This document shows positions 51,786-63,159 of a stretch of DNA of 64,000 nt, piece by piece. Within the stretch, counting starts at the first letter, position 1, and every line of letters begins with the position of its first letter. The notes beneath the pieces are model-generated. The model saw only the letters and a program-made list of their open reading frames with translations. It was not told where the DNA came from and did no database searches. A program made the position numbers and the translations under genes. Origin of the DNA: Sphyrna mokarran (Eukaryota); contig JAGIQG010000006.1 of the NCBI GenBank assembly GCA_024679065.1, forward strand, positions 8,060,001 through 8,124,000, in the 5' to 3' direction.

Positions 51786-52571
51786 GATCAGTTGCCCCAT
51801 GTGAGCATTCAGAGCCAATCTCCAATCAAGTCCGGACGCGGAAAATTTAAACTGAGTGGGATTTACAGTGGGAATGCAGGAAGAGGTGGAGGGGCAGGGG
51901 AGGAGGCTTTGATGGAAATGAGAGGGAGGTGGAATGACCTGAGACTGGGAGTGTGGAAGGAGGGGGATACAGGAGAAATGGGGAAAGAATGTGAGAGGAG
52001 TAGGAATGTCACAGGACGGGAAATGGAATTGTGGGATGGAGGGATGCAGGAAGCAAGGAAATTTGGGAGGGTGAATGCAGAGGGAGCGGGTAACGTGGAA
52101 TGAACCTCTCTAATCAACTGGCACCACTTTCATAGAATCCCGCAGTACAGAAGGAGGCCATTTGGCCCATTGAGTCTGCACCGACCACAACTTCACCTAG
52201 GTCCTATCCTCATAACTGTTCCATTCTCATAACTATCCTCATCCTGTTCCATTGGAGCAGCACGGAGAGGCAGCGATTTGGGAGAGCGAGAAGTTTGATT
52301 GATAAGTAGCTTTTTAACTTTTCTCTTTGTTTAAAACAGCGAGCGGGAGTAGTTTTTGCCGTTTTTTTTATTTAAACTAACTTGTAACCGGAAGTCGTCA
52401 CTAGGGGCTGCCGGTAGTTGTAGTTTTTCTCTCTGACTCTATAAATTGGTCCAGAGAGGAAACCCGATACTCTACACAGGTAGAGTATCCCACCCTCCCC
52501 CCTCCTCTAACCTAATAATAATAGTGTGTTTGTAGTTTTTTTTTTCTCTCCTGCAAATTAAAGTAACAGTG

Positions 52572-53495
52572 ATGGCAGTGCAGGTAGTACATTGCACCTC
52601 CTGCGGTATGTATGAGGTGAGGGACACCAGTAGTGTTTCTGCTGATTATACCTGCAGGAAGTGTGCACATTTGCAGCTCCTTGAGGATCGTGTTAAGGAG
52701 CTGGAGCTGGAATTAGAGGAGCTCAGAGTAATTCGAGAGGTTGAGGAGGATATAGGCAGGAGTAACAAAGAGATTGTAACTCCTCTAAGTGATAAGTGGG
52801 TAACTCTTAGGAGGAGGGGTAAGAAGCAATCGGGGAGACAATCCCCTGGGGCTGTTCCCCTCCAAAATAAATTTTCTGTCTTGGAGGCTACAGTTGAGGA
52901 AGAATCAACTGGAGCTGACAAAAGGGAGCAGGTCTCTGGGGGTGAGCCTGCTGAGAATGCTCAGGTGGGTGGGGGGAATAAGAGATTAGGCCTAGTTATA
53001 GGAGACTCCATAGTTAGAGGGACAGATAGGAGGGTAAATAGTAATAAACAGGACTCAGGGCTGGTGTGTTGCCTCCCAGGGCCTGGGGTCCAGGATGTTG
53101 CAGATCGGGTTTTTAGGATTCTTAAGGGTGAGGGGAGTCAGCCCCAAGTCATTGTTCATGTGGGGACACATGATGTAGGTAGGGCAAGGGAAGGGGATAT
53201 TAAACAGAAATTTATGGAGTTAGGGTGGAAGCTTAGGTCCATAACAGGCAGAGTGGTTATCTCTGGATTCTTGCCTGTGCCAAGAGATAGTTTAGAGATG
53301 AACAGAGAAAGGGATAGTTTGAACTCATGGCTGCGTGGATGGTGCAGGAGGGAGGGGTTCAGTTTCCTTAACAATTGGGACTCATTCTGGGATAGGTGGG
53401 ACCTCTTCAAGAGAGATGGTCTACACCTGAACCAGAGGGGGACTAATATCTTGGGGGGGAAATTTGCTAAGGCTATGATGGGGGCTTTAAACTGA
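52572..53495 (+). CDS. CR1 ORF1p: CxxC..CxxC zinc finger, leucine zipper, SGNH esterase
   Basis: CTSC..CRKC, LEDRVKELELELEEL, GDSIVRG, HVGTHD, DGLHLN. First ATG at 52572. Confidence 0.9.
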   Translation: MAVQVVHCTSCGMYEVRDTSSVSADYTCRKCAHLQLLEDRVKELELELEELRVIREVEEDIGRSNKEIVTPLSDKWVTLRRRGKKQSGRQSPGAVPLQNKFSVLEATVEEESTGADKREQVSGGEPAENAQVGGGNKRLGLVIGDSIVRGTDRRVNSNKQDSGLVCCLPGPGVQDVADRVFRILKGEGSQPQVIVHVGTHDVGRAREGDIKQKFMELGWKLRSITGRVVISGFLPVPRDSLEMNRERDSLNSWLRGWCRREGFSFLNNWDSFWDRWDLFKRDGLHLNQRGTNILGGKFAKAMMGALN

Positions 53496-56479
53496 TTCGG
53501 GGGGGGGGTGGGATCCTAAGTAGTTGGGGTGCCGAGAGGGATGAGAGTAAGGGGGTTATAGAGGAGAGTTGTAAAACACAGCGGCGTACGGGTGGGGTGG
53601 GGCAGGGTTTGAGATGCGTATACTTTAATGCAAGGAGTATTCGCAATAAGGGGGAGGAACTTGCAGCTTGGACCAGTACCTGGAGCTTCGATGTTGTGGC
53701 CATTTCAGAGACTTGGGTAGAGCAGGGACAGGAATGGATGTTGCAGGTTCCGGGGTAAAAATGCTTTAGTCGGAGTAGAGAAGGGGGTAGAAGGGGGGGA
53801 GGAGTGGCGTTACTGGTCAAAGACTGTATCACGGTGATCGAAAAGAAGTTTGATGAGGACTTGTATGTTGAGGTAGTATGGGCTGAGATTAGAAACAGGA
53901 GAGGAGAGGTCACCCTGTTGGGAGTCTTTTACAGACCTCCTAATAGTTCTAGAGAGGTTGAGGAAAGGATTGCAAAGTCAATTCTGATTAGGAGTGAAAG
54001 TAGTAGGGTAATTGTGATGGGGACTTTAACTTTGCTAATATTGATTGGAATAGCTAAAGCTCTAGCTCGTTAGAGGGGTCAGTTTTCGTACAGAGTGTGC
54101 AGGAAGGTTTTTTGACTCAGTATGTAGATAGGCCAACTAGAGGTGAGGCTACATTGGATTTGGTGCTGGGCAATGAGCCAGACCGGGTGTTAGGAAGACC
54201 AGGTGCAGGAAGGTTTTTTGACTCAGTATGTAGATAGGCCAACTAGAGGTGAGGCTACATTGTATTTGGTGCTGGGCAATGAGCCAGACCAGGTGTTAGG
54301 CTTGGAAGTTAGTGAACATTTTGGTGATAGTGACCACAGTTCGGTTACGTTCACCTTAGTGATGGACAGGGATAGGCATGAAGCTGGGGGCTGTAGTTAT
54401 AGCTGGGGGAAGGGTAATTATGAGGCCATCAGGCGAGGATTAGGGTGCGTAGATTGGACTAGGGAACTACAGGGACTGGGAACATCTGGAAGGTGGTGCT
54501 TATTCAAGGAGCAGCTGCTGAGAGTCCTTGATAAGTATGTCCCTGTCAGGCAGGGAGGAAATGAACGAGTAAGAGAGCCTTGGTGTACGAAAAGAGTTGA
54601 TTTGCTGGTTAAGAAGAAAAAGGAGGCTTATGTCAGGATGAGGCTTGAAGGCTCAGGTAGTGCAATGGATAGTTATAGATTAGCTAGGAAGGAGGTAAAA
54701 AGTGAATTGAGGAGAGCTAAGAGGGGACACGAGAAGATGTTGGCTTATAGGATTAAGGAGAATCCTAAAGCTTTCTTTCGATATGTTAAGAATAGAAGAT
54801 TGGTTAGGGCAAGATTAGGGCCAGTCATAGACAGCAGTGGGAAGTTGTTCGTGGAGCCTGAAGAGATTGGTGAGGCACTGAATAAATATTTCTCTTCGGT
54901 ATTCACGCAGAGTGCTGGAAATGTAGCTGTGGAGAGCACTGAGGTACAGGGTTGCCAATTGGGGAGTATTGTAGTAGATAGGGAGGATGTGTTAGAAATT
55001 CTCGAGGGTTTGAAGTTGGATAAGTCCCCTGGGCCGGACGGGATTTACCCTAGGATTCTCTGGGAGGCAAGAGAGGAGATTGCAGAGCCTCTGGCTCTGA
55101 TCTTCAGGTCCTCGTTGGTTACGGGTGTGTTTCCGGAGGACTGGAGGATAGCGAATGTGGTCCCATTGTTTAAGAAGGGGAAGAGAGACCTTCCAGGGAA
55201 TTATAGGCCAGTGAGTCTTACTTCTGTTGTGGGCAAGGTATTGGAGAGAATTATTAGGGATAGGATTTATAGTTATTTAGAGAGAAATGAATTGATGGGG
55301 GATAGTCAGCATGGTTTCGTGAAGGGTAGGTCATGCCTTACTAACCTCATTGAGTTTTTTGAGAAGTGACCAAAGAGGTGGATGGGGGTAAGGCGGTTGA
55401 TGTAGTATATATGGACTTTAGTAAGGCGTTTGATAAGGTGCCCATGGAAGACTTCTACAGAAAATGCAGATGTGTGGAATAGAGGGTGATTTAGCTAATT
55501 GGATTAGGAATTGGCTGGCAGATAGAAGACAGAGGGTGGTGGTTGATGAGAGATATTCATCGTGGAGTTCGGTGACAAGTGGTGTACCTCAGGGGTCTGT
55601 TTTGGGGCCCCTGCTGTTTTGTAATTTTTATAAATGATCTGGATGAGGGTATTGAAGGATGGATTAGTAAATTTGCAGATGACACTAAAGTCGGTGGAGT
55701 GGTAGATAGTGAAGAGGGGTGTTATAGTTTGCAGAGTGACTTGGACAAGTTGCAGAGCTGGGCCGAGAGGTGGCAAATGGAGTTTAATGTGGAAAAGTGT
55801 GAGGTAATGCACTTTGGCAGGAACAATAAATGTGTAGAGTATAGGGCTAATGGTAGGGCTCTTAATAGTGTTGAGGAACAGAGGATCTTGGTGTATGTGT
55901 CAATAGATCCCTGAAAGTAGGCAGTCAAGTGGATAAAGTTGTTAAGAAGGCATATGGAGTCTTAGCTTTTATTGGTAGGGGGATTGAATTTAGGAGCCGC
56001 AGCATCAGGTTGCAACTGTACAAAACTCTAGTGCGGCCGCACTTGGAGTATTGTGTGCAGTTCTGGTCGACACATTATAAGAAAGATGTGGAGGCATTGG
56101 AGAGGGTACAGAGGAGGTTTACCAGGATGTTGCCTGGTATGGAGGGCAGGTCTTATGAAGAGAGGCTGAGGGATTTGAGGTTGTTTTCGTTAGAAAGAGG
56201 CGGCTAAGAGGGGACCTTATCGAAACATATAAGATGATTAGAGGTTTAGATAGGGTGGACAGTGATAGCCTTTTTCCTAGGATGGAGAAAGCTAGCACGA
56301 GGGGACACAGCTTTAAATTAAGGGTTATGAGTTATAGGACAGATATCAGAGGTAGGTTCTTTACTCAAAGAGTGATTAGGGAGTGGAATGCCCTGCCTGC
56401 AGCTGTTGTAGATGCGCCAAGTTTGGTGGCGTTTAAGAAGTTAGTGGATAAGTATATGGATGAGAAGGGAATGGTTTAG
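53486..56479 (+). pseudogene. CR1 ORF2 (APE endonuclease + reverse transcriptase), disrupted
   Basis: Motifs YFNARS, SETW, YRPP, SDH, PGPDG, FADD, with in-frame TAA at ~53756 and frameshifts. Confidence 0.92.
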
Positions 56480-57814
56480 TTAGGAGGGGCATTGCTTGTT
56501 ATTTTGGTCGGCACAACATCGAAGGCCGAAGGGCCTGTTCTGTGCTGTATTGTTCTATGTTCTATGTTCTATGTTCTATAACCCCATGCATTTATCCTAG
56601 CTAGTCCCCCTGATACAAAGGAGCATTTAGCAATCCACCTAACCCACACACATTTGGAAACTGGAGCACCCAGAGGAAATCCACAGGGAAGAATGTGCAG
56701 ACTTCACACAGGCAATGACCTAAGCTGGGAATTGAACCTGGGTCCCTGGCGCTGTGTGATAACCGTGCTAACTACTGTAGCACCGTGCCACCCAATGAAT
56801 CCAGTTAATGAATTCCAGAACTAATTTTGTGGGGCACAGAGTTAGTTTCACTTAAATAATTGGTGTTAAAATGGGGCTTCAAACAGGTGACCAGATCCTT
56901 ATTTCCCTGGTTAAGGGCTGATTGCTTTGTTGTTTTAACCTTCAGCACTATGATTGGTGCCATGTCACTGGTTGGAAATGAAATGATCCTCCTGTCTGTT
57001 ATATCGTGTGAAGGAATGAAATAAACAAGTGCCACGGGCTAGGCCAGCATTTATTACCCTTAGTTACCCCTTCAGAAGGTGATAGCGAGCTGCCTTCTTG
57101 CAATCTCTGAGGTGTAGGTACACCCCCAGTGCTGTTAGGGAGGGAGTCAGAGGACTTTTATCCAAATCGGTGGCTTAGCTATGAGCACGCAACATGCATT
57201 ACACAGATCAATTCACAAACCACAGCTTTTATCTCTGGTGTAAATAGTAGGACGGAGGTGAGTGACTGGGTAGGACAGGTTTAACCCGCTAATTATTACA
57301 GGTGCTTTGCTCAGGGAACTGGCTGCTGTTTCCAACTCCTCGGCTGTGATGGGAGATTTTACTGGAGGTCAGCCAGTTTTCAATAACTGATCCCAGAGTG
57401 AATCTATGCTTTCAATTGTCAATCTATCAAAGTTGCAATGCTTGTGAACAGTGCATCAAATAAACAATTGTTTATGCATATACAATGACTTGTTTTTAGC
57501 ATCAACTTGCACTACACATCAATCAGAATGAAATGAGGCTATTCCGCCCATCATATCTGTGTCAGCCCTTTGACAGATCTAGCCAATTTGTTTGGGTTCT
57601 TGGTTTATGCGATGAAAGAGTGCCTGGCTAGTCCATCCCTAGTTGCTTCTTGAGAAGGTGGTAAGCTGCCTACTTGAACAGCGGCAGTCCCTGAAGTGTA
57701 TGTACACTCACCGTGCTGTTAGAGAGGGAGTTGCAGGATTTTGACTCAGCAACATCAACATTTCCAAGTCAGAATGGTGAGTAACTTGGAGGGTGGTCCC
57801 ATCCAACTGCTTCT

Positions 57815-60800
57815 ATGGGAATAAGAGATAGACCTGGTAATTGGAGACTCCATAATTAGGGGGACAGATAGTAGAGTAAATAGTAATAAACGGGACTCAG
57901 GGCTGGTGTGTTGCCTCCCAGGGGCTGGGGTCCAGGATGTCTCAGAATGGGTTTTTAAGATTCTTAAGGGAGAGGGGAGTCAGCCCCAAGTCATTGTTCA
58001 TGTAGGGACACATGATGTAGGTAGGACAAGGGAAGGGGATATTAAACAGAAATTTATGGAGTTGGGATGGAAGCTTAGGGCCAAAACAGACAGAGTGGTT
58101 ATCTCTGGACTCTTGCCTGTGCCACGGGATAGTTTAGAGAAGAACAGAGAGAGGGAATGTTTGAACTCGTGGCTGCGGGGATGGTGCAGGAGGGAGGGGT
58201 TCAGGTTCTTGAACAATTGGGGCTCATTCTGGGGTAGGTGGGACCTCTACAAGAGAGATGGTCTACACCTGAACCAGAGGGGAACCAATATCTTGGGGGA
58301 AAAATTTGCAAAGGCTATGCAGGGGGCTTTAAACTGATTCAGAGGGGGGGTGGGATCCTGAGTAGTTTGGATGTTAAGAGGGACGAGAATAGGGGGGTCA
58401 TAGATGAGAACTGTAAAGCACAGCAGCGTACGGGTGGAGTAGGGCATGGTTTGAAATGCATATACTTTAATGCAAGAAGTATTCGCAATAAGGTGGAGGA
58501 ACTTGCAGCTTGGACCAGTACCTGGAACTTCGATGTTGTGGCCATTTCAGACACATGGATACAGCAGGGACAGGAATGGTTGTTGCAGGTTCCAGGGTTC
58601 AAATGCTTCAGTCGGAGTAGAGAAGGAGGTAGAAGGTACCTTATTGAGTTTTTTGAAAAAGTGACCAAAGAGGTGGATGGGGGTAAGGCAGTTGATGTAG
58701 TATATATGGAATTTAGTAAGGCGTTCGATAAGGTGGCTCATGGAAAGCGTCTGCAGAAAATGCAGATGTATGGGATTGAGGGTGATTTAGCTAATTGGAT
58801 TAGGAATTGGCTAGCAGATAGAAGACAGAGGGTGGTGGTTACAAGTGGAGTACCTCAGGGATCTGTTTTGGGGCCCCTGCTGTTTGTAATTTTTATAAAT
58901 GATCTGGATGAGGGTATTGAGGGATGGATTAGTAAATTTGCGGATGACACCAAAGTCGGAGGAGTGGTAGATAGTGAAGAGGGGTGTTATAGTTTGCAGA
59001 GAGACTTGGACAAGTTGCAGAGCGGGGCCGAGAGGTGGCAAATGGAGTTTAATGTGGGAAAGTGTGAGGTAATGCACTTTGGCAGGAACAATAAATGTGT
59101 AGAGTATAGGGCTAATGGTAGGGCTCTTAATAGTGTTGAGGAACAGAAGGATCTTGGTGTATGTGTCAATAGATCCCTGAAAGTAGGCAGTCAAGTGGAT
59201 AAAGGTGTTAAGAAGGCATATGGAGTCTTAGCTTTTATTGGTAGGGGGATTGAATTTCGGAGCTGCAATGTCATATTGCAACTGTACAAAACTCTAGTGC
59301 GGCCGCACTTGGAGTATTGTGTGCAGTTCTGGTCCCCACATTATAAGAAAGATGTGGAGGCATTGGAGAGGGTACAGAGGAGGTTTACCAGGATGTCGCC
59401 TGGTATGGAAGGCAGGTCTTATGAAGAGAGGCTGAGGGATTTGAGGTTGTTTCCGTTAGAAAGAAGGCGGCTAAGAGGAGACCTTATTGAAACATATAAG
59501 ATGATTAGAGGTTTAGATAGGGTGGACAGTGATAGCATTTTTCCTAGGATGGAGAAAGCTAGCACGAGGGGACATAGCTTTAAATTAAGGGATGGTGGTT
59601 ATAGGATGGATGTCAGAGGTAGGTTCTTTACCCAGAGGGTGGTAAGGGTATGGAATGCCCTGCCTGTGTCAGTTGTAGATGTGCCAAGTTTGGTGGCGTT
59701 TAAGAGGTTAGTAGATAAGTTTATGGACGAAAAGGGAATGGTTTAGGTTTGAGGGTCATTGCTTTTTCCTAATTGGTCGGCGCAACATCGAAGGCCGAAG
59801 GGCCTGTTCTGCGCTGTAATATTCTATGTTCTATGTTCTAAGGGGGGGGTAGGAGTGGCGTTATTAGTCAAAGACTGTATCACAGTGACAGAAAGGAAGT
59901 TTGATGAGGACTTGTCTGTTGAGGTAGTATGGGCTGAGATTAGAAACAGGAGAGGAGAGGTCACCCTGTTGGGAGTCTTTTATAGACTTCTTAAAAGTTC
60001 TAGAGAGGTAGAGGAAAGGATTGCAAACGATCCTGGACAGGAGTGAAAGTAATAGAGTAATTGTTATGGGGGACTTTAACTTTACAAATATTGATTGGAA
60101 TAGCTATAGCTCTAGCATGTTAGAGGCGTCAGTTTTTGTACAAAGTGTGCAGGAAGGTTTTTTGACTCAGTATGTAGATAGGCCAACTAGAGGTGAGGCT
60201 ACATTGGATTTGGTGCTGGGCAATGAGCCAGACCAAGTGTTAGGCTTGGAAGGTGGTGAACATTTTGGTGATAGTGACCACAATTCAGTTACATTCACCT
60301 TAGTGATGGATAGGGATAGGCATGAAGCTGGGGGCAGTAGTTATAGCTGGGGGAAGGGTAATTATGAGGCCATAAGGAGAGAATTAGGGTGCATAGGTTG
60401 GACTAGGAAACTACAGGGACTGGGAACATATGAAATGTGGAGCTTATTCAAGGAGCAGCTACTGTGAGTCCTTGATAAGTATGTCCCTGTCAGGCAAGGA
60501 GGAAATGGTCAAGTAAGGGAACCATGGTGTATTAAAAAAGTTAATTCGCTGGTTAAAAGGAAAAAGGAGGCTTATGTCAGGATGAGGCTTGAAGGCTCGG
60601 TTAGCGCAATGGATAGCTATAGATTAGCCAGGAGGGAGCTAAAGAGTGAATTGAGGAGAGCTAAGAGAGGACACGAGAAGACTTTGGCTGATAGGATTAA
60701 GGAGAATCCTAAAGCGTTCTTTAGATATGTTAAGAATAGAAGATTGGTTAGGGCAAGATTAGGGCCGGTCATAGACAGCAGTGGGAAGTTGTGCGTGGAG

Positions 60801-62509
60801 CTGAAGAGATTGGAGAGGCACTGAATAAATATTTCTCTTCGGTATTCACGCAGGGAGATGTAAATGTAGTTGTGGAGAACACTGGGATACAGGTTGCAAA
60901 CTGGAAAGTATTGAAGTAGATAAGGAGGATGTGCTAGATATTCTTGAGGGTTTGAAGTTAGATAAGTCCCCTGGGCCGGACGGGATTTACCCTAGGATTC
61001 TCTGGAAGGCGAGAGAGGCGATTGCAGAGCCTCTGGCTCTGATCTTCAGGTCGTCGTTGGTTACGGGTGTGGTTCCGGAGGACTGGAGGATAACGAATGT
61101 GGTCCCATTGTTCAAGAAGGGGAAGAGAGACCTTCCAGGGAATTATAGGCCAGTGAGTCTTACTTCTGTTGCGGGCAAAGTATTGGAGAGAATATTAGGG
61201 ATAGGATTTATAGTTATTTAGAGAGAAATGAATTGATTGGGGATAGTCAGCATGGTTTTGTGAAGGGTAGGTCGTGCCTTACAACCTTATTGAGTTTTTT
61301 GAAAAAGTGACCAAAGAGGTGGATGGGGGTAAGGCAGTTGATGTGGTATATATGGACTTTAGTAAGGCGTTCGATAAGGTGGCCCATGGAAGGCTTCTGC
61401 AGAAAATGCAGATGTATGGGATTGAAGGTGATTTAGCTAATTGGATTAGGAATTGGCTAGCTGATAGAAGACAGAGGGTGGTGGTTGATGGAAGATATTC
61501 ATTGTGGAGTTCGGTTACAAGTGGTGTACCTCAGGGATCTGTTTTGGGGCCCCTGCTGTTGTAATTTTTATAAATGATCTGGATGAGGGTATTGAAGGAT
61601 GGATTAGTAAATTTGCAGATGACACTAAAGTCGGTGGAGTGGTAGATAGTGATGAGGGGTGTTATAGTTTACAGAGTGACTTGGACAAGTTGCAGAGCTG
61701 GGCCGAGAGGTGGCAAATGGAGTTTAATGTGGAAAAGTGTGAGGTAATGCACTTTGGCAGGAATAATAAATGTGTAGAGTATAGGGCTAATGGTAGGATT
61801 CTTAATAGTGTTGATGAACAGAAGGATCTTGGTGTGTATGTGCATAGATCCCTGAAAGTAGGCAGTCAAGTCGAGAAGGTTGTTAAGAAGGCATATGGAG
61901 TCTAGCTTTTATTGGTAGGGGGATTGAATTTCGGAGCCGCAACGTCATGTTGCAACTGTACAAAACTCTAGTGCGGCCGCACTTGGAGTATTGTGTGCAG
62001 TTCTGGTCCCAACATTATAAGAAAGATGTGGAGGCATTGGAGAGGGTACAGAGGAGGTTTACCAGGATATTGCCTGGTATGGAAGGCAGGTCTTATGAAG
62101 AGAGGCTGAGGGATTTGAGGTTGTTTTCGTTAGAAAGAACGCGGCTAAGAGGAGTCCTTATTGAAACGTATAAGATGATTAGAGGTTTAGATAGGGTGGA
62201 CAGTGATAGCCTTTTTCCTAGGATGGAGAAAGCTAGCACGAGGGGACATAGCTTTAAATTAAGGGGTGGTGGTTATAGGACGGGTGTCAGAGGTAGGTTC
62301 TTTACCCAGAGGGTGGTAAGGATATGGAATGCCCTGCCTGCATCAGTTGTAGATGCGCCAAGTTTGGTGGCGTTTAAGAGGTTAGTAGATAAGTTTATGG
62401 ACGAGAAGGGAATGGTTTAGGTTAGAGGGTCATTGCTTTTTCTTAATTGGTCGGCGCAACATCGAAGGCCGAAGGGCCTGTTCTGCACTGTAACGTTCTA
62501 TGTTCTATG
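57815..62509 (+). mobile_element. CR1 family A copy truncated within ORF1, interrupted at ~58636/59840 by another family A copy
   Basis: EN sequence stops at agaagg (58636) and resumes as aagggggggtaggagtggcg after the tail at 59840, as in the uninterrupted 53780-53810. Confidence 0.93.
58637..59839 (+). mobile_element. Nested CR1 family A 3' fragment (RT + tail)
   Basis: Begins at LIEFFEK and ends in a TTCTATG tail. Confidence 0.93.
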
Positions 62510-63159
62510 TGGTAAAGGTCACAGTTTTGGAAAATTCTGTCAAAAAAGCACTGGCAAGTGAATGTTAAAGGTCGTGGATAGGATGCCAATTAAACAGCTG
62601 CTTTTTGCTGGATGGTGTTGAGCTTCTTGAGTGTTGGCGCTGCACCCATCCAGGCAAGTAGAGAATATTCCATCAAACTCCTGACTTGTGTTTTAGATTT
62701 GGAGAATCAAAAGGCAAGTTAATTAGCCTCTGATTTGCTCCTGTAACCACAATATTTATGTGTCAGGTGCAACTAGGTTTCTGGTCAATTGTGCCTCACA
62801 GGAAATTGGATAGTAGGGGATTCAGTGATGGTAATTGTATATTGAACACTCAATAGTGAGGGGAACTGATTGGACTCGATCTTGTTTTGTTAATTGGTGG
62901 GATGTGGACATCACTGTCTGAGCCAGCATTTATTTCTCCAATTTCCCTTTGAGCCCATTCAGAGGGTATTGCTGTGGCTCTGGGAGTCACGTGTAGGCCA
63001 GACCAGGTAAGGATGGCAGATTTCCTTCCTTGAATCAGATGGGCTTTTAAGACAATCATTTCATGGTCATTAGACTTTTAATTCCAGATTTTTATTAAAT
63101 TTAAATAGTAGGATTTGAACCAGGTCACCAAAGCACTACAGGTCTATAGATTAATGGAG

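Follow-up and report, generated by a model that had tools for sequence, protein, structure and literature searches.

A conserved U_UUA_AAC heptamer at the ORF1 stop codon of CR1-type LINEs is a candidate site of −1 ribosomal frameshifting

The junction analysed here lies in a 64 kb stretch of DNA (the window) from an animal genome of 2.77 Gb and was found to be the ORF1/ORF2 boundary of a young CR1-type LINE, the features of which are collected in Table 1. The element is a CR1-type LINE with an esterase ORF1, as judged from its sequence by the esterase encoded in ORF1 (a match to PF13472 above the cut-off), the APE endonuclease and reverse transcriptase (RT) of ORF2 and the tandem-repeat tail; self-comparison of the window element revealed no terminal repeats (LTRs). 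The closest named protein matches of ORF1 came from sharks and rays. The window copy is 98–99% identical to young copies in the rest of the genome, and the youth of the family was also indicated by 39 other best matches at 99% identity among the matches listed in the genome search. ORF2 of the window copy is disrupted by a stop at 53756, a 106 nt tandem duplication (54097–54300) and further breaks. From elsewhere in the genome, 14 longer copies were picked for their apparently open ORF2, and in seven of them the −1 frame was open for 963–964 codons from the heptamer, five of these seven also carrying a full-length open ORF1. A further 5′-truncated copy with a similar junction (59844–62510) lies directly behind the second element of Table 1, and many additional CR1 fragments of several ages are present within the window. 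In the 5′ UTR, the segment 52480–52569 begins with GT, continues through a polypyrimidine stretch to AG just before the ORF1 AUG and resembles a small intron; contigs from sequencing runs of related organisms showed no joint there.

Table 1. Features of the CR1-type elements in the window (positions are those of the window).
Feature	Position	Strand	Remarks
Near full-length CR1-type LINE copy, dead	52250–56579	+	5′ end from common start motif (approximate), 3′ end from tail repeat
ORF1, 307 aa, ending A-L-N-stop	52572–53495	+	N-terminal Cys motifs, coiled-coil-like stretch, SGNH/GDSL esterase
Slippery heptamer U_UUA_AAC (TTTAAAC)	53486–53492	+	ORF1 phase T_TTA_AAC
−1-frame linker, 45 codons, heptamer to endonuclease, without AUG or stop	53486–53620	+	
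ORF1 stop TGA, immediately 3′ of heptamer	53493–53495	+	TAA or TAG in older families
G10-T-GGG tract, candidate 3′ stimulator	53499–53512	+	G enrichment across families
ORF2 remainder, APE endonuclease and RT, broken in window copy	53621–56479	+	
First in-frame ORF2 AUG, residue 85	53738–53740	+	3′ of endonuclease Asn48 and Glu75
3′ tail, 7 nt tandem repeats	56551–56579	+	
Second copy, sister subfamily, internal deletion	57817–59840	+	Same heptamer, stop and open −1 frame at 58328–58337

In the original prediction an in-frame TTTAAAC immediately preceded the ORF1 stop, and the −1 frame was open from that point as ORF2; both the coordinates and the phase were correct, the −1 frame reading FKLIRGGGGIL...LRCVYFNARS...SETW. 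T_TTA_AAC is the sole in-frame canonical X_XXY_YYZ heptamer of the window ORF1. TTTAAAC by itself is frequent, with 11 occurrences on the + strand of the window; given an x-L-N end and the codon usage of ORF1, T_TTA_AAC would arise by chance with a probability of approximately 0.025. Upstream of the heptamer the −1 frame is closed, a TAA lying five codons 5′ of it in all 30 near-identical copies inspected. The predicted late first AUG was confirmed as well, since the ATG of residue 85 lies beyond both Asn48 (53627) and Glu75 (53708), and the same residue was the first in-frame AUG in 30/30 near-identical and 14/14 longer copies. A start at this residue would cost the first 63 of 225 positions of the Pfam endonuclease model and lower the score from 72 to 46.5 bits. 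Moreover, in an alignment with the L1 endonuclease Glu75 is the counterpart of Glu43, and as it precedes residue 85 it would be removed by an AUG start; we take Asn48 and Glu75 to be catalytic. Thus, as the first AUG lies past these endonuclease residues, ordinary AUG initiation on unspliced RNA cannot make the ORF2 protein of this family.

In order to follow the junction through the genome, copies were anchored by requiring the DGLHLN motif and, 20 codons after it, a stop-like codon, which yielded 4728 places as compared with 17 for a reversed-pattern control. TTTAAAC preceded the ORF1 stop in 4197 of the 4728 and differed at the first base only in a further 247. As these counts are dominated by young families, an older sample was formed from the first 100 among the 600 places where the stop was TAA or TAG, chosen irrespective of the heptamer and with none dropped (approximately five rows are misregistered). 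In this sample the wobble base of the preceding codon was T in 93/100 copies even though the residue varied (G, D, A, N, T, S), the Leu codon was TTA in 85/87 and the Asn codon AAC in 81/86. A control Leu-Asn pair within the anchor, 20 codons upstream, used CTG (52), CTA (23), TTG (12) and TTA (5) for Leu, i.e. TTA in 5/96, and AAC and AAT in a ratio of 74 to 26 (n = 100). The heptamer is therefore conserved clearly beyond the need of the amino acids (TTA 85/87 vs. 5/96), and we conclude that the heptamer junction is real and strongly conserved, keeping in mind that copies and representatives are related and that all such counts overstate independence. On these grounds the predicted fusion of ORF1 and ORF2 by a frameshift gains support at the level of sequence.

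The linker between the heptamer and the endonuclease was examined in 189 loci, clustering of which gave nine families of at least four copies (family 0 being represented by 40 of its 87 members), with two smaller clusters and 21 singletons left outside these tests. The linker was a multiple of three in all nine families (135–237 nt), the majority-occupied columns from heptamer to endonuclease motif numbering 135, 147, 183, 186, 153, 156, 141, 237 and 156; families 6 and 8 gave 220 and 154 columns with four copies each and 237 and 156 with 25 each, family 6 retaining three ambiguous columns in its G-run. Over 498 codons of the nine families, majority stops numbered zero in the −1 frame vs. 32 in the 0 frame and 49 in the +1 frame, the last two figures being sums made by hand that leave out the TAA inside the heptamer. 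The linker pN/pS ratio of the −1 frame (0.68) was not singled out from those of the other frames (0.91 and 0.71). A per-copy count of linker phase in old copies (27, 17 and 21 per frame) is uninformative because of indels and was replaced by the family column counts.

An open linker would likewise be kept if a separate ORF2 protein were made by termination–reinitiation near the ORF1 stop, either independently of AUG or coupled through UAAUG, with the heptamer as a by-product. Both forms have been put forward for other LINEs, AUG-independent reinitiation having been proposed for L1 and UAAUG being used in SART1 (PMC3708506; PMC5009743), and in the present data a CUG overlaps the stop (C-UGA) in the family of the window while UAAUG occurs in family 4. 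No start codon overlapping or adjoining the stop was conserved among the nine families, however, UAAUG being found in one of them and CUG only together with TGA; a CUG start overlapping the stop was rejected as a candidate, for it is lost in families with TAA or TAG, where it turns into CUA (600 anchored copies). The first −1 codon past the stop is also variable (ATT, GTT, GAT, GAA, AAT, ATG), and reinitiation leaves unexplained the fixed synonymous bases 5′ of the stop and the class switches of XXA_AAC described below. We consequently regard reinitiation as improbable, while ranking it first among the alternatives to frameshifting. The UAAUG stop–start overlap of family 4 was seen in five G000 loci (L033, L050, L152, L159 and L173), in the −1 frame and right after an intact heptamer, so that frameshifting and reinitiation are both conceivable there.

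As to an in-frame AUG upstream of the endonuclease, the prediction held for five of the nine families, including that of the window, where none was present, and failed for the other four, where the majority sequence of the linker contains an in-frame AUG, at unrelated positions (nt 9, 114, 123 and 198). These AUGs, together with those of the distant loci L192 and L195 and the existence of a G_UUA_AAC lineage (see below), would fit a mixed situation in which both routes operate or lineages differ, frameshifting being ancestral while some families use a gained linker AUG and keep a partly vestigial heptamer. Yet AUG-bearing families retain the heptamer (exact in 16/25 copies of family 6), and in three of them the frame is open for 38–66 codons upstream of the AUG, which makes this combination quite unlikely in our estimation.

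The G_UUA_AAC lineage was recognized among the 247 first-base variants, of the first 100 of which 82 were assigned by eye to one young lineage with GCG TTA AAC. Its copies (21 compared) differ by approximately 1.2%, share linked changes, fall into internal sub-lineages and have different flanks wherever these are visible; ORF2 is fully open in two of five longer copies. The lineage has been amplified to very roughly 200 copies, and as some of these have an open ORF2, the first base of the heptamer is not strictly required, which weakens the case for the perfect heptamer as essential. For equine arteritis virus, GUU is given among the deviations tolerated at the P site (PMC3542737), and by analogy this tolerance would be consistent with frameshifting on G_UUA_AAC.

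The original prediction further assigned a stimulatory role to the G10-T-GGG tract, which begins 6 nt after the heptamer as proposed; G-richness at this position is kept across families, whereas the G10 run itself proved subfamily-specific. Across 34 groups the frequency of G was 0.56–0.57 at 7–18 nt past the heptamer vs. approximately 0.27 further on, and the enrichment extends to third positions of the −1 codons. The G4Hunter-type score of the tract was matched by 1/71, 1/75, 0/84 and 1/7 other windows in four elements, and a two- or three-tier quadruplex was predicted for 7/12 shark representatives and 0/3 metagenome loci. Local folding, with the stimulator expected 5–9 nt from the heptamer, revealed no 3′ stem-loop shared among seven folds (two of which began 10 nt early); only the window copy folded better than its shuffles (z = −2.1), its main hairpin lying at a distance of 16 nt, and the other six gave z = −0.7 to +1.3. 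Our guess is that a G-rich protein-binding or quadruplex element, aided by the adjacent stop, stimulates the shift; a 2016 review described frameshifting stimulated by natural G-quadruplexes as ‘not currently known’ (PMC5009743).

To see how far the junction extends, the ends of ORF1 proteins were inspected in the 150 top-ranking representatives of a 50% clustering, of which 118 contained the motif and 114 ended within 45 residues of it. The last residue of these 114 was Asn in 67 (L-N 37, G-N 22, K-N 3, other 5) and another residue in 47, so that 62/67 Asn-ending representatives had L-N, G-N or K-N against a background of 23%. Leu, Gly and Lys are dissimilar residues with XXA codons in common. 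The residue before each pair fits the required wobble base in 36/37 L-N, 22/22 G-N and 3/3 K-N ends; residues with pyrimidine-only codons precede L-N (14 vs. 1) and those with purine-only codons precede G-N (14 vs. 0), a split with a Fisher p of 2e-7 that is inflated by relatedness. For most of the distant homologues, the heptamer class was read from such ends only, these being protein predictions, and this holds in particular for the A_AAA_AAC class, taken from the K-N end. In a quick tree, the careful search for which was unfinished, F-L-N and S/A-K-N ends nest inside the G-N clade, which suggests that the heptamer class switched more than once. A separate clade (P0113, P0119, P0124, P0145, P0162, P0183, P0190 and P0191) has x-K-N where the other proteins terminate and extends slightly beyond it, which at the protein level would fit A_AAA_AAC with a longer overlap; some others have F-F, F-L or G-F at that position. 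Two proteins labelled Pseudomonas (P0010) and flatworm (P0034) look like vertebrate-type CR1 ORF1 and are possibly contamination, and two database proteins (P0026 and P0038) already continue past ORF1 through part of the −1 linker, probably owing to copy-specific indels.

DNA of such relatives was obtained from one metagenome scan with 17 loci, 15 of which were examined together with one locus from a viral collection, two being cut before the end of ORF1. L192 and L195 both read CAG GGA AAC TAG (G_GGA_AAC), with the −1 frame open for 930 and 980 codons, respectively, and a Met at or slightly before the start of the endonuclease. L197 reads CAT TTA AAC TAG (U_UUA_AAC_UAG) with the −1 frame open as far as the end of the contig, and L194 has G_GGA_AAC one codon 5′ of the stop, at the contig end; in nine other examined loci no LINE junction or no stop was found. 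In the supplement of PMC13343379, of which apparently the first 400 letters per consensus were covered, 17 of 23 matches to the heptamer plus TA were judged by eye to be ORF1 ends, which, as the search was by motif, gives a range and not a frequency or frame. According to our interpretation of the labels, consensuses with the same junction came from crocodilians, frog, coelacanth, bowfin, halosaur, chimaera, sharks and rays. The junctions of the sister families in the present genome, inspected by eye, also look like published CR1 consensus entries. The supplements of PMC7140322 gave no sequence matches, those of PMC4316615 (all files but one) gave matches to 3′ ends only, and viral or prokaryote DNA collections searched for amniote DNA gave none of relevance.

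Conservation of nucleotides does not by itself imply decoding, and the motif might have been kept for another role, such as protein binding, packaging or processing, with ORF2 translated from a spliced or shorter RNA. The motif, however, lies at the stop in exact register with the codons and is invariably accompanied by an ORF2 in the −1 frame, its first four letters change jointly (UUUA, GGGA and, by protein, AAAA) with the X_XXA_AAC form kept, and the linker is purine-rich with no splice acceptor evident from its sequence. We hold such a role to be the least probable of the readings considered, and a very remote one.

We therefore favour, with a probability of about 0.78, the reading that ribosomes would make an ORF1–ORF2 fusion by −1 tandem slippage on U_UUA_AAC at the CR1-type junction; with a slippery signal and no usable ORF2 start codon in the youngest family, ribosomes are likely to slip back and yield a fused protein. 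Ribosomes would pause at the heptamer just 5′ of the ORF1 stop, because of this stop, the G-rich tract or both, and a minority of them would slip back one base, the two tRNAs shifting in tandem from UUA/AAC to UUU/AAA. The slipped ribosomes would produce a fusion of esterase, linker, endonuclease and RT, which may persist intact or be cleaved in the variable linker, and the remaining ones would stop and produce ORF1p, resulting in a low, fixed ratio of ORF2 to ORF1, and the ORF1 part of the fusion would bring the enzyme into the RNP in the manner of Gag-Pol. Weighing against this reading are the linker AUGs of four families, the Met of L192 and L195, the amplified G_UUA_AAC lineage, the pN/pS values, the finding of no shared 3′ stem-loop in local folds and the 47 ORF1 representatives with an end other than Asn.

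Viral −1 sites, such as coronavirus U_UUA_AAC, the arterivirus GUU variant and retroviral gag-pol, resemble the CR1 junction in having an in-phase X_XXY_YYZ where the first ORF ends, the polymerase ORF in the −1 frame and the same heptamer classes (PMC3542737; PMC5009743). Unlike them, the CR1 site resides in a non-LTR retrotransposon and is followed by a G-rich tract, with no conserved local stem-loop found at 5–9 nt. According to a review figure legend, ORF2 of Dictyostelium TRE5-A and TRE3-A needs a −1 frameshift (PMC5911963), and frameshifting is mentioned for HeT-A (PMC5009743), so that frameshifting in non-LTR elements is not unprecedented; TRE5-A and TRE3-A are likewise APE-type non-LTR elements with ORF2 in the −1 frame, but differ from CR1 in lineage and ORF1 type. 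Mammalian L1 and silkworm SART1 share with CR1 a bicistronic LINE RNA and low-level ORF2 (PMC3708506; PMC5009743), but make a separate ORF2p by unconventional initiation or UAAUG reinitiation, whereas the CR1 signal predicts a fusion. The described vertebrate CR1 elements, with ORF1 type IVB (CR1 subgroup 7; PMC4120745) and canonical CR1 (PMC13343379), have the same esterase ORF1 with a zinc-finger-like N-terminus, the same APE-RT ORF2 and repeat tail, and the same heptamer at published consensus junctions. The word ‘frameshift’ is absent from the main texts of both papers, and the full-text literature searched, outside which lie Repbase and the papers of the 1990s on chicken and turtle CR1, contained no report of CR1 frameshifting. 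The junction would thus be an instance of an established recoding mechanism in one of the major LINE clades of vertebrates, for which the literature searched gave no description of it.

Other layouts were encountered in sister LINEs. In two L2-like esterase LINEs with a DGxHP motif (L208:566–571 and L196:1818–1823), ORF2 lies in the frame of ORF1 behind a single UGA, with the contexts UGA_CUA and UGA_CAU and the first Met following after 181 and 49 codons, respectively. UGA_CUA is a type II readthrough motif (PMC3542737), and both junctions are, by sequence, candidates for stop-codon readthrough; an end in [LGKP]-N was found in only one of 16 DGxHP-type proteins, and a search for the L2 readthrough motif in published consensuses gave no usable matches. 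At a single locus, L198, ORF1 ends in GUU_UAG_C with the stop near 977, and ORF2, of 974 codons with its first Met at 193, lies in the +1 frame, the same motif having been described for closterovirus +1 frameshifting (PMC3542737). With considerable doubt, the picture may be extended to CR1-type LINEs across jawed vertebrates and to distant relatives, which would make a Gag-Pol-like fusion on X_XXA_AAC stimulated by a G-rich or G-quadruplex element and not by a stem-loop, while sister esterase-ORF1 LINEs would reach the fusion via UGA_CUA readthrough or a closterovirus-like GUU_UAG_C +1 shift, so that all three viral recoding routes would be in use.

In most vertebrates the dominant retrotransposons belong to the CR1 group (PMC13343379), and the translation of LINE ORF2 has been described as unclear (PMC3708506). 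If the frameshift reading is true, the model of two separate LINE proteins fails for this clade, CR1 ORF2 annotations starting from the first AUG lose catalytic residues, and a fused esterase-RT explains how the enzyme enters the RNP. The conserved heptamer makes this reading directly testable in one experiment and offers, from its sequence context, a candidate answer to how CR1-type LINEs may make their reverse transcriptase.
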